Below the pieces are notes generated by a model. It did no database searches. It was not told where the DNA came from and saw only the letters and a list, made by a program, of their open reading frames with translations. A stretch of DNA of 64,000 bases, taken from contig DATMZM010000208.1 of the NCBI GenBank assembly GCA_035607445.1, forward strand, positions 1,286-65,285. The letters run 5' to 3'. This DNA is from Thermoanaerobaculia bacterium. GTDB lineage: Bacteria; Acidobacteriota; Thermoanaerobaculia; Multivoradales; UBA5704. Below, piece by piece: positions 16,301 through 19,300 of the stretch; position 1 is the first letter of the stretch; every line of letters begins with the position of its first letter. The position numbers and the translations under genes were made by a program.

Positions 16301-19300
16301 TCGACGAGCGGGACGTCTGGACGCTGTTCCACTCGATCGCTTTCGACTTCTCGGTCTGGGAGCTCTGGGGCGCCCTGCTCTTCGGCGGGCGGCTCCTGGT
16401 GGTGCCCTACTGGGTGAGCCGCTCTCCGGCGGGATTCGTCGATCTGCTGGCCGAAGAGCGGGTGACGGTGCTGAATCAGACGCCGTCGGCCTTCCGGCAG
16501 CTGACCTGGGCGGAGGGTGCGAATCCCGAAAGCTTGTCGGCCCTGCGCGAGGTGATCTTCGGCGGCGAAGCCTTGGAGCCGCGGAGCCTCTCGCCCTGGT
16601 TTGCGAAGCACGGAGATCTGCGCCCGCGCCTGGTCAACATGTACGGCGTCACCGAGACGACGGTCCACGTGACCGCGCGGCCATTGCGGGCGGACGACGC
16701 GGAGCGAGGGAGCCTCGTCGGCCGCGCCATCCCGGATCTCTCGGTGCTCGTGATGGACGCGCGGCAGGGCGTCGAGCCGTCTCCGATCGGCGCCCCGGGG
16801 GAAATCCAGGTCGGCGGCGCGGGGCTGGCGTCGGGCTATCTCGGACGCCCGGACCTGACCGCGGAACGGTTCGTTCCCCATCCATTCGCCGAGAAGGGAG
16901 GTGAGCGGCTCTACCGCTCGGGGGATCTCGCGCGCCGATTGGCGGACGGCGATCTCGAATATCTGGGCCGCATCGATCACCAGGTGAAGGTGCGCGGATT
17001 CCGGATCGAGCTCGGGGAGATCGAATCGGCGATCGCCGCCCTGCCAGGTGTGCGCGAGTGCACGGTCCTCGCTCGCGCCGATGGCGGCTCGGAGCCTCGC
17101 CTGGTGGCGTACGCCGTGGGCGATGCCGTGCCCGCGCTGTCGGAGCTGCGGTCGGCTCTCGCGGCCAAGCTCCCGGAGTACATGGTGCCGTCGGCCCTGG
17201 TGGTGCTCGAGGCGCTGCCGCTGACGGCGCACGGCAAGGTGGACCGAAAGGCGCTGCCGGTCCCGCAAGAGACGCGTCCGGCCGAGAAGGTCTGGACCGC
17301 GCCGCGGACGCCGCTCGAGAAGTTCCTGGCGGAATTGGTCGCCGACGTGCTGCGGATCGAACAGGTCGGGGTCGCGGACGATTTCTTCGAGCTCGGCGGC
17401 AACTCGGTGAGCGGCGCGGTGCTGATCAACCGCATTCAACGCGAGATCGGCGAGATCGTGCACGTCGTGACGATCTTCGACTCGCCGTCGGTGGATTCGC
17501 TCGCCCACTATCTGACGGAGCAGCACGCGAACGCGGTCGAGCGGCGCTTCGGAGCATCCGGCGGTGATCAGGCTACCGCGGTCGCCGTCGCGCCGCCGCC
17601 GCCCGCCCCCGAGACGCGCATCGACCGCGGCATGCTCGAGGAGATGCGGCGCCGCCTGCGCCCGGGAGGCGCCGGAAGCGGATCGAAGAACCGGCCGGTG
17701 ATCTTCGTCCTCGCTCCGCCGCGGTCGGGAACGACGCTTCTGCGCGTCATGCTCGCCGGCCATCCGCGGCTCTTCGCGCCGCCCGAGCTCGAGCTGCTGA
17801 GCTGGAAGACGATGGCCGATCGGCGCGCCGCGTTCACCGGCCGCGACAGCTTTTGGCTCGAAGGGGCGGTGCGCGCGGTCATGGAGGCGCGCAGCTGCGA
17901 CGCCGAGGCGGCGAAGGAGATCGTCCAGGAGTTCGAGGACGAGGGTCGGACCACCCTCGAGTTCTATCGCGCGCTCCAATCCTGGATCGGCCCTCGGACG
18001 CTGGTCGACAAGACGCCGTCGTACGCGCTCGACCCGGAGATCCTCAAGCGCGCGGAAGCGGGTTTCGAGAGGCCGCTCTACCTCCACCTTCTGCGCCATC
18101 CGGGCGGCATGATCACCTCCTTCGAAGAGGCGAAGCTCGATCAGATCTTCTTCCGCCAAGAACACTCGTTCTCTCGCCGCGAGCTCGCGGAGCTGATCTG
18201 GCTCGATAGCCATCTCAACATCCTCGACCTCCTGGCCGAAGTGCCCGCCGAGCGCCAGCACGCGGTGCGCTTCGAGGATTTGGTGCGCGAGCCGGAGGGT
18301 GCCCTCGCGGAGATCTGTTCCTTCCTCGGCATCGATCCGGACGCGGCGATGGGGGACCCCTACGGCGCGGGCTCGGCCCGGATGACGGACGGGCCGCTGC
18401 CCGAATCTCGCATGCTCGGCGACGTCAAGTTCCTCGAGCACCGGAAGATCGATTCCGGCGTGGCCGAGCGCTGGCGCGAGCGTCTCGACGAGGCTTCCTT
18501 GGGCGAGCCGACGCGGGAGCTCGCCGAGCGGCTCGGTTATGCCTGGGGGGTCCGGCCCGCGGATCTTCGGTCCCCGGACTCGCCTTCCGATGCGACCTGC
18601 GTCTCGGTGCCGCGCGCGGACTGGGCGCCCGGCGAGCCCCTCCCCCTCTCGTTTGCGCAGGAGCGACTCTGGTTCCTCGACCGGCTCGACCCGGGACGGC
18701 CGACCTACAACATTCCGACCGCGGTCCGGCTCACCGGCACTCTCGCCGTGCCTTCCCTCGCGCGCGCTCTCGCCGAGCTAGCGCAGCGCCACGCGGCGCT
18801 CCGCACGACCTTCGGCGAGATTTCCGGGCGACCGGTGCAAAGGGTCGCGCAAGCCGGAAACCTGCCGCTGCCGCTGGCGGATCTCGGAGCGCTCGCCACG
18901 TCTCGCAAGAAGGCCGAGGAGCTGCGGCTCGCGAGCGCGTTCGCCGCTCTGGCGTTCGATCTCGAACAGGGCCCGGTCGCGAGGGCCTTGTTGCTCGGGC
19001 TTCGAGCGGACGAGCATGCGGCGATCCTCGTGCTCCACCACATCGTCGGCGACGGCTGGTCGATGGGGGTCCTGGTCGCCGAAATGGCGGCGCTCTATGC
19101 CGCCTTCGCGGCGGGGCGGCCGTCGCCGTTGGCGCCGCTGCCGATCCAATATCCCGACTTTGCCCTCTGGCAGCGAGCCGCGCTCGCGGGCGAGGCGCTC
19201 GACCGGGAGCTCGCCTATTGGCGCGCGGACCTCGCCGGCCTCCAGCCGCTCGATCTGCCGACCGATCGGCCCCGCCCGCGAAGGCAGACTTTCCGCGGCG

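Follow-up and report, generated by a model that had tools for sequence, protein, structure and literature searches.

Sulfotransferase domains in line behind threonine modules of an acidobacterial nonribosomal peptide synthetase, with O-sulfo-threonine as the favoured product

Background

Sulfotransferase (ST) domains linked to a carrier are known from the offloading of polyketide synthases (PKSs), in CurM and the olefin synthases (OLS), and from the glycerate loading modules of two cyanobacterial nonribosomal peptide synthetases (NRPSs). Here we discuss a different arrangement, in a stretch of 64,000 nucleotides of contig DATMZM010000208.1 of a Thermoanaerobaculia bacterium, which we call the window. 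It is almost wholly NRPS and includes three ST domains, each within an elongation module and directly behind an adenylation (A) domain of threonine type and its carrier (T) domain, with a condensation (C) domain following, in the order C-A-T-ST-C. Our best reading of their function, to which we give a probability of about 0.6, is that they lead to O-sulfo-threonine that is retained in the product.

The STs of CurM and OLS resemble those of the window in having a PRSG(S/T)T loop for binding of the 5'-phosphosulfate (5'-PSB), the Glu of PPEL, the Lys of VDK(S/T)P and an RHP...S segment for binding of the 3'-phosphate (3'-PB), and also in being embedded in a megasynthase right behind a carrier, with a beta-hydroxy thioester as substrate, here a presumed one. 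They differ in that theirs is a PKS termination unit, acyl carrier protein (ACP)-ST-thioesterase (TE), with a decarboxylating TE and loss of the sulfate, whereas here we have NRPS elongation, and in that their carrier holds a 3-hydroxyacyl chain made by the PKS, whereas here the loading is done by an A domain whose code is for Thr. Judged by its partner domains, the system in the window falls outside the CurM-type ACP-ST-TE offloading units.

With regard to NRPSs, the initial annotation of this stretch, made from sequence alone, held that none with an in-line ST had been described, but there are two. OciA of the Planktothrix cyanopeptolin pathway has an embedded ST and its product keeps the sulfate, as HO3SO-CH2-CH(OMe)-CO-HTyr... 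(PMC2533009), and DysB of the dysinosin pathway also has an NRPS-embedded ST, with the sulfated glyceric acid retained in the product (PMC6520454). The group kept is a 3-O-sulfo-glycerate in both. The window STs are likened to these by architecture and not by sequence: in both cases the ST is inside an NRPS polypeptide, with that of OciA and DysB acting on a carrier-tethered beta-hydroxy acyl unit. However the STs of OciA and DysB belong to glycerate loading modules of FkbH type, with one ST in each pathway, whereas here there are three STs per line, in elongation modules and with Thr as the presumed substrate. No FkbH-type domain was found in the domain scan of the window, where the STs are in C-A(Thr)-T-ST-C modules, and the system is not a glycerate loading module of the OciA/DysB type.

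Three further systems are relevant. SulN of sulfazecin biosynthesis, an enzyme dependent on 3'-phosphoadenosine 5'-phosphosulfate (PAPS), sulfonates a peptide intermediate that is still bound to its NRPS carrier, ahead of the following step on the line (PMC11298585), but it is free-standing and acts in trans, N-sulfonating the amine of diaminopropionate (Dap) to give a sulfamate that assists TE-catalysed beta-lactam formation. The tyrosylprotein sulfotransferases TPST1 and TPST2 are peptide-side-chain O-sulfotransferases and have the next-closest solved fold, with catalytic Arg and Glu aligned, but they are enzymes of the eukaryotic Golgi that act on free proteins, specific for Tyr and with only about 20% identity. 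Lastly the CmodAA domains, as in AmbE (7r9x) and McyA (8jbr), also process Ser or Thr on NRPS lines, and there are two in the same window, but they have another fold and another chemistry (direct dehydration), and the C domains that follow the STs are not of this type.

We found no NRPS described in the searchable papers that has an ST cassette placed internally behind amino-acid modules, and literature searches on in-line STs of acidobacterial NRPSs, on STs in combination with dehydrobutyrine (Dhb), on sulfate elimination on carrier proteins, and on McyA together with CmodAA gave nothing relevant. NRPS-embedded STs are known as such; what appears to be new here is a repeated ST cassette behind amino-acid modules that is widespread in uncultured phyla.

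Identity of the sulfotransferase domains

The three domains are as follows.

17683-18588, plus strand: ST1, 302 amino acids, in a frame starting at 17599; upstream A code DFWNIGMVHK
34894-35787, plus strand: ST2; upstream A code DFWSVGMVHK
52098-52991, plus strand: ST3; upstream A code DFWSVGMVHK

The initial annotation had placed an ST at 17600-18555, between the carrier of a Thr module and the next C domain. The domain and its placement are borne out by Pfam, by matches in the PDB and by domain mapping, while the frame starts one position earlier and the boundaries move to those given above. The three strings quoted for it, the P-loop string, RHPGGMITS and MTDGPLPESRMLGDVKF, are all in the translation. 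ST2 and ST3 are 91% identical; ST1 has about 60% identity to either, and 62% to ST2 over the whole T-linker-ST unit.

ST1 matches the Pfam family PF13469 (Sulfotransfer_3) with 100.3 bits (E=2.4e-28), and the three copies range from 98.9 to 100.3 bits, where the cut-off is 27. In phmmer searches of the PDB with ST1 the best matches, aligned over the full domain, are the STs of CurM (4gbm, E=1.1e-60) and OLS (4gox, E=1.9e-60), followed by the tyrosylprotein sulfotransferases at E~1e-9. An AlphaFold2 model of ST1, built on 90 homologues and with a pLDDT of 90.3, was compared with solved structures by Foldseek, and gave TM scores of 0.93 to 4gbm and 0.95 to 4gox with an rmsd of about 2 Å. All 58 of the significant Foldseek matches are sulfotransferases and none is a kinase or ATPase. 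The proposal of a CurM/OLS-type PAPS fold thus came through the profile, structure and PAPS-residue checks, with no assignment to a kinase or ATPase family.

In ST1 the 5'-PSB motif is PPRSGTT, the putative base is the Glu in PPELELL, the Lys is in VDKTP and the 3'-PB motif is RHPGGMITS. PPRSGTT, the PPELELL Glu, the VDKTP Lys and RHPGGM[IV][TR]S are common to the three window copies. Across the 90 homologues R42, S43, G44 and T46 are near-invariant and R166, P168 and S174 invariant, and the VDKTP Lys is invariant among the ST homologues. If the more than 30 in-line STs of other loci are added, the R, the E, the K and the R...S pair of the 3'-PB are still invariant or nearly so. In a gap-free alignment with TPST2 the Arg of PPRSG pairs with Arg78 and the Glu of PPELELL with Glu99, and the Glu is also that of CurM PPELHLL. 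For CurM we presume the residue numbers, which were cross-checked only against the chain offset in 4gbm. For TPST it is known that Arg78, Glu99 and Lys158 (TPST2 numbering) are catalytic (PMC10951654).

The STs are PAPS-type sulfotransferases of the CurM/OLS clade, in agreement with every sequence and fold feature tested, and each is predicted from its residues to be catalytically competent and PAPS-dependent. The ST domain is under purifying selection, with a dN/dS of 0.15 between ST2 and ST3 as against 0.17-0.22 in the A and C domains on either side.

There is one systematic difference from CurM and OLS, seen across the STs of the window and of loci L001-L069 and in the ST-TE and stand-alone T-ST homologues. 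The His two residues past the catalytic Glu in CurM and OLS (PPELHLL) is replaced in the metagenomic clade, mostly by Glu, Asp or Gln (PPELELL in the window) and elsewhere, rarely, by Ala or Cys; the position is non-His whether a C or a TE domain comes after the ST.

The T-ST-C cassette

Domains were mapped by motif search and self-HMM (hidden Markov models made from the line itself), and by Pfam profiles with curated cut-offs. Those making up the ST modules, and the related module 9, are listed here, all on the plus strand and with modules numbered along the line.

15715-17316, plus strand: A domain of module 5, Stachelhaus code DFWNIGMVHK (Thr)
17293-17514, plus strand: T domain before ST1, a specialised carrier with motif FFELGGNSVSGAVLINRIQ and not GGHSL
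17515-17682, plus strand: linker from T to ST1, 56 amino acids
18604-19938, plus strand: C domain after ST1, of LCL type, starting 5 amino acids after ST1; C1 motif LSFAQERLWFL, active site HHIVGDG, C2 motif RHAALRT (Glu to Ala)
32938-34743, plus strand: A (DFWSVGMVHK, Thr-type) and T (GGNSI) of module 10
35788-37116, plus strand: C domain after ST2, LCL, RHAVLRT
50145-51944, plus strand: A (DFWSVGMVHK) and T (GGNSI) of module 15
52998-54320, plus strand: C domain after ST3, LCL, RHAVLRT
31273-32892, plus strand: T, linker and C of module 9, with a GGSSI carrier, a remnant of the T-to-ST linker YLEAEHATGVARWLGG and a C domain of the post-ST type (RHAVLR); A code DFWSIGMVHK

The code upstream of ST1 had been read as an exact Thr code, and so it is: our extraction gave the correct DAWTIAAICK for the GrsA control, and Rounge et al. 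(PMC2533009) give DFWNIGMVHK for Thr in the cyanopeptolin synthetase. In the AlphaFold2 model the linker has a short helix towards its C-terminal end and is elsewhere of lower confidence.

The carriers before STs are a distinct subtype. Among the loci discussed below none of 29 pre-ST carriers has GGHSL, as against 169 of about 196 pre-C carriers (p~3e-21), and the usual pre-ST motif is GGNSI. The C domains that follow the STs are canonical LCL domains with HHxxxDG intact and LSFAQERLWFL, and their best PDB matches are Txo2, Txo1 and TycC. However in the C2 motif RHExLRT an Ala stands in place of the Glu in 3/3 of the post-ST C domains of the window and in 0/12 of its other motif-matched LCL domains; across the loci the change is found in 52% of post-ST C domains and 9% of other C domains. 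Grouping of the post-ST C domains is modest only, with 46% of nearest neighbours being of the same kind as against 11%. The possibility that they form a radically distinct class is out, as they are LCL domains with one cassette-linked motif change. Special T, ST and matched C together make up a cassette and not a stray insertion.

RHA[AV]LR is present in every C domain of the window that is behind an ST-type carrier (18604-19938, 31573-32892, 35788-37116 and 52998-54320), and the second of these is in module 9, which has no ST. The module 9 carrier shares about 60% identity with the pre-ST carriers and 33-44% with others, and after it the first 16 or so residues of the T-to-ST linker are kept and then comes the C domain directly. 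On sequence this looks like the scar of an ST deletion.

Module 9, which seemingly lost its ST while the module persisted, is the one point in favour of the STs being inactive relics or mere structural spacers. Both the dN/dS of 0.15 and the conservation of all PAPS-binding and catalytic residues, which holds for the three paralogues as well as for hundreds of homologues, make that hardly credible.

Relatives and the residue sulfated

For comparison we used about 22 loci with T-ST-C from metagenome-assembled genomes (MAGs), several of them with two STs, and an exhaustive HMMER search that gave 1,171 clusters (50% identity) at E<=1e-30. Counts for representative proteins here and below are from the 143 new representatives among the best 150 of the 1,171 clusters. 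The loci are from Acidobacteriota (Thermoanaerobaculia, Holophagales and Blastocatellia), Calditrichota and Melioribacteraceae, and the nearest match among genome species representatives in the genome contig scan has 58% identity. In the case of the representatives, 127 of the 143 are longer than 1,000 amino acids and have the ST internally, and the contexts are T-ST-C in 73 (plus 7 that are N-terminally cut), T-ST-TE in 38 (plus 2) and T-ST at the end of the protein in 27. The in-line ST cassette is common: T-ST-C and T-ST-TE are present in hundreds of metagenomic megasynthases, mostly of uncultured Acidobacteriota and also of other phyla.

A codes of Thr or Ser type are strongly enriched upstream of the ST. 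They account for 16/23 in the related loci, as against 15/142 for other A domains (p=5e-9), and for 29 of 54 T-ST-C contexts in the representatives, where the figure for background A domains is 5 of 101. In keeping with this enrichment elsewhere we take the Thr beta-hydroxyl as the probable natural substrate, as had been suggested in the initial annotation. More generally the ST would decorate a nucleophilic side chain of the residue on its own carrier. For about 46% of the ST-C contexts among the representatives the upstream code is not of Ser or Thr type, and the remaining codes include a DASTVAAVCK-like code, which we take to be for Tyr, and DIWE[IL]TADDK, which we take to be for diaminobutyrate (Dab).

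These other codes, and the stand-alone T-ST proteins at the ends of NRPS clusters that are described below, would fit an ST that acted elsewhere, be it on another hydroxyl or amine of the chain, on a substrate held by a different carrier or on the released product. We consider this improbable, given that the enrichment of Thr and Ser modules is strong and specific to the position directly upstream, and that the dedicated T subtype is always fused upstream (GGHSL in 0/29). The nearest neighbours of an ST also tend to share its upstream specificity, an effect that is inseparable from simple module orthology.

The mechanism we favour would proceed as follows. Thr would be loaded on the dedicated carrier as Thr-S-T, or be there as peptidyl-Thr-S-T after the upstream condensation, and the phosphopantetheine arm would bring it to the ST, which would move SO3 from PAPS onto the side-chain beta-hydroxyl. 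The sulfated donor would then be handed to an ordinary LCL condensation domain, with the sulfate ester kept in the product. Three points here we infer from context: the Thr hydroxyl as the acceptor, the form in which it is sulfated (aminoacyl-Thr or peptidyl-Thr), and retention of the sulfate.

Fate of the sulfate

The window has Thr modules without an ST, and after two of them there is a C domain of CmodAA type.

43728-45503, plus strand: A (DFWNVGMVHK, Thr) and T (GGDSI) of module 13, without ST
45585-46877, plus strand: CmodAA-type C domain after module 13, with NHAIFDGWS replacing HHxxxDG; the acceptor module is for Gly
62858-64000, plus strand: second CmodAA-type C domain, with NHAILDG, behind the ST-less Thr module 18 in gene 3

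The best PDB matches of the C domain at 45585-46877 are the N-terminal C domain of McyA (8jbr, 2.7e-95) and AmbE (7r9x, 5.8e-53). The CmodAA class is credited with dehydration of Ser and Thr in NRPSs by Patteson et al. 2022, as cited in PMC11766569, and the subtype is noted also in PMC10212144. For the domain at 45585-46877 the acceptor is Gly and therefore the sole residue that can be dehydrated is the donor, Thr13. With CmodAA domains at two of its ST-less Thr modules the line already owns the canonical device for making Dhb. The same combination is found in an independent protein, P0290, in which A(Thr)-T-ST-C is followed directly by A(Thr-type)-T-CmodAA. None of the post-ST C domains is of CmodAA type: they are LCL-like in all 26 from the window and loci and in all 80 from the representatives.

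These observations bear on the second of the two outcomes proposed in the initial annotation, namely that the sulfate leaves the T-bound (peptidyl-)Thr, by an E1cB or anti-elimination, to give Dhb. The loss could be spontaneous or helped by the ST or the downstream C domain, and the Dhb might have a geometry unlike that of the CmodAA product. Its attraction is that CurM and OLS, the nearest characterised homologues, have activating STs, that Thr-S-T would be a beta-hydroxy thioester with the regiochemistry of the CurM substrate, and that sulfation-elimination enzymes are among the distant relatives in fold (retinol dehydratase 1x8j and LGS1 22ga); the specific C2 change in the post-ST C domains could also be counted for it. 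However the same line and P0290 use CmodAA after other Thr modules, no post-ST C domain is of that type, and STs are also found behind modules with Tyr-like and Dab-like codes, where beta-elimination from the side chain is not possible. In the two precedents, OciA and DysB, a beta-sulfate is kept through a C domain. We thus regard elimination to Dhb as unlikely, while the first of the two outcomes, O-sulfo-Thr, is favoured but not proven.

The TE domains give a further argument against elimination. The TE behind the ST in relatives is of NRPS type (best match 4zxh, 4e-29), with the CurM TE absent among the matches, and upstream of T-ST-TE the codes again include the Tyr-like and Dab-like ones. 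For both reasons the logic of the CurM ST-TE pair does not carry over to these proteins, and CurM-like decarboxylative offloading in the T-ST-TE relatives is ruled out on the same grounds.

The sulfate could also leave by substitution, with the amide O attacking to give a methyloxazoline, with N attacking to give an aziridine, or with formation of an ether or amine cross-link. This would account for there being a second Thr-processing device beside CmodAA in one line; sulfate-assisted ring formation has a precedent in the ST fold (LGS1 22ga), and the cassette-specific change in the C domain could mean an altered donor. However there is no domain resembling a heterocyclisation (Cy) domain and no extra catalytic domain, and the C domains after the STs are canonical LCL ones in which HHxxxDG is intact. 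The wide upstream range, Ser, Thr, Tyr-like and Dab-like, is better suited by simple decoration, and we think cyclisation or cross-linking quite unlikely.

It is useful to put the more general case, that of an activating ST which makes the Thr beta-carbon electrophilic, with sulfate loss giving a product that CmodAA cannot make. The candidates for that product are Dhb of the opposite geometry, an oxazoline or aziridine, and a side-chain cross-link. Taken as a whole this is possible but doubtful.

Retention of the sulfate as O-sulfo-Thr is the reading that we prefer, and several points weigh against it. In CurM and OLS, the closest characterised homologues, the sulfate serves to leave. To argue from the presence of CmodAA in the same line is to appeal to parsimony and is no proof, and the Glu to Ala change in the C2 motif after STs could reflect extra chemistry. 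The Tyr and Dab labels are for codes whose assignment we presume, and the Tyr could be beta-hydroxylated in trans. The close relatives are all from uncultured MAGs, and no nonribosomal peptide bearing O-sulfo-Thr was found in the searchable literature. In favour of retention, O-sulfo-Thr in peptides is reported to be reasonably stable (PMC13514629).

On this reading of retained sulfate there would be three fates for Thr in the one line: O-sulfo-Thr in modules 5, 10 and 15, with ST and LCL; Dhb in modules 13 and 18, with CmodAA; and plain Thr in module 9, where the ST is apparently lost.

O-sulfation of Thr and Ser counts as extremely rare. Should the sulfate be retained, the peptides from these lines would contain O-sulfo-Thr or O-sulfo-Ser, and probably sulfo-Tyr or N-sulfo-Dab as well, and the domain would be a defined family of Thr/Ser O-sulfotransferases. 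Prediction of structures from sequence, in the manner of antiSMASH or of synthetic-bioinformatic natural products (syn-BNP), should then add SO3 at the ST positions. If instead the sulfate leaves, we have a new PAPS-driven activation chemistry on assembly lines, for dehydro or cyclised residues. With either fate the T-ST(-C) cassette is a candidate for a portable tailoring unit in NRPS engineering.

Other ST contexts in relatives

No cultured producer or known compound was found among the homologues, and the named matches have generic MAG annotations. Near ST homologues there were no genes for PAPS supply or for sulfatases close by in the two contexts inspected.

Five loci have NRPS termination modules built as C-A-T-ST-TE and closed by a stop codon: L005 (17868-19530), L009 (8115-9880), L010 (10391-12172), L011 (3341-5080) and L017 (10358-12130). 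The TE in these is an ordinary one of NRPS type and the upstream A code is for Thr or is DALVSGCIFK. L005 and L009 combine an in-line ST-C with the terminal ST-TE.

In L019, from Melioribacteraceae, there is at 9107-11245 a tandem pair of STs around a carrier-like domain in which the phosphopantetheinyl Ser is replaced (GGNEE).

Stand-alone T-ST didomain proteins of 430-520 amino acids are found directly after large NRPS genes, for example in L081 at 10001-11566 (P0014). Downstream of such proteins there are two large genes without Pfam matches and a carbamoyltransferase gene.

Organisation of the window

The assembly line has at least 19 modules and extends past both edges of the window. It is encoded in three genes.

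235-42255, plus strand: NRPS gene 1, 14,006 amino acids, cut at the 5' end by the window edge, with the listed start of the open reading frame inside an A domain
42252-59513, plus strand: NRPS gene 2, 5753 amino acids, modules 13-17, with its start overlapping the gene 1 stop
59510-64000, plus strand: NRPS gene 3, with C, A (DFWNVGMVHK, Thr), T (GGDSI) and the CmodAA-type C domain, running off the right edge

Gene 1 has modules 0-12, being (A)-T and then 12 C-A-T modules, two of which are C-A-T-ST. The initial annotation had overlooked ST2 and ST3, the module 9 scar, the two CmodAA domains and the continuation of the NRPS past both edges. Six modules of the line are of Thr type (5, 9, 10, 13, 15 and 18), and the others around them are of Asn, Leu, Ile, Gly and Gln type, with several codes having no assignment. 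No epimerisation domain was detected across the 19 modules of the window, the only weak C-like matches being the two CmodAA domains.

Successive genes are joined by overlaps of 4 nucleotides at 42252-42255 and 59510-59513, the start of each lying over the preceding stop (ATGA at 59510), and this arrangement suggests translational coupling.

There has been a duplication within the line, of modules 10-12 (32.9-41.9 kb) and 15-17 (50.1-59.2 kb). Amino-acid identity between the copies is 87% for A, 96% for T, 91% for ST, 86% for the post-ST C and 85% for the Gln-type A, with dS of about 0.33-0.45, but the later parts are more diverged, with dS of 1.0-1.4, and the sequences suggest that the duplication is mosaic or recombined.

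Along one continuous NRPS the G+C content drops from 0.76 on the left side of the window to about 0.65 on its right side, and a strong positive GC skew (0.14-0.23) is found only at 34-40 kb and 50-56 kb, where the two duplicated ST cassettes lie. The shift in composition and the skew may mark recombination or a foreign origin of modules.

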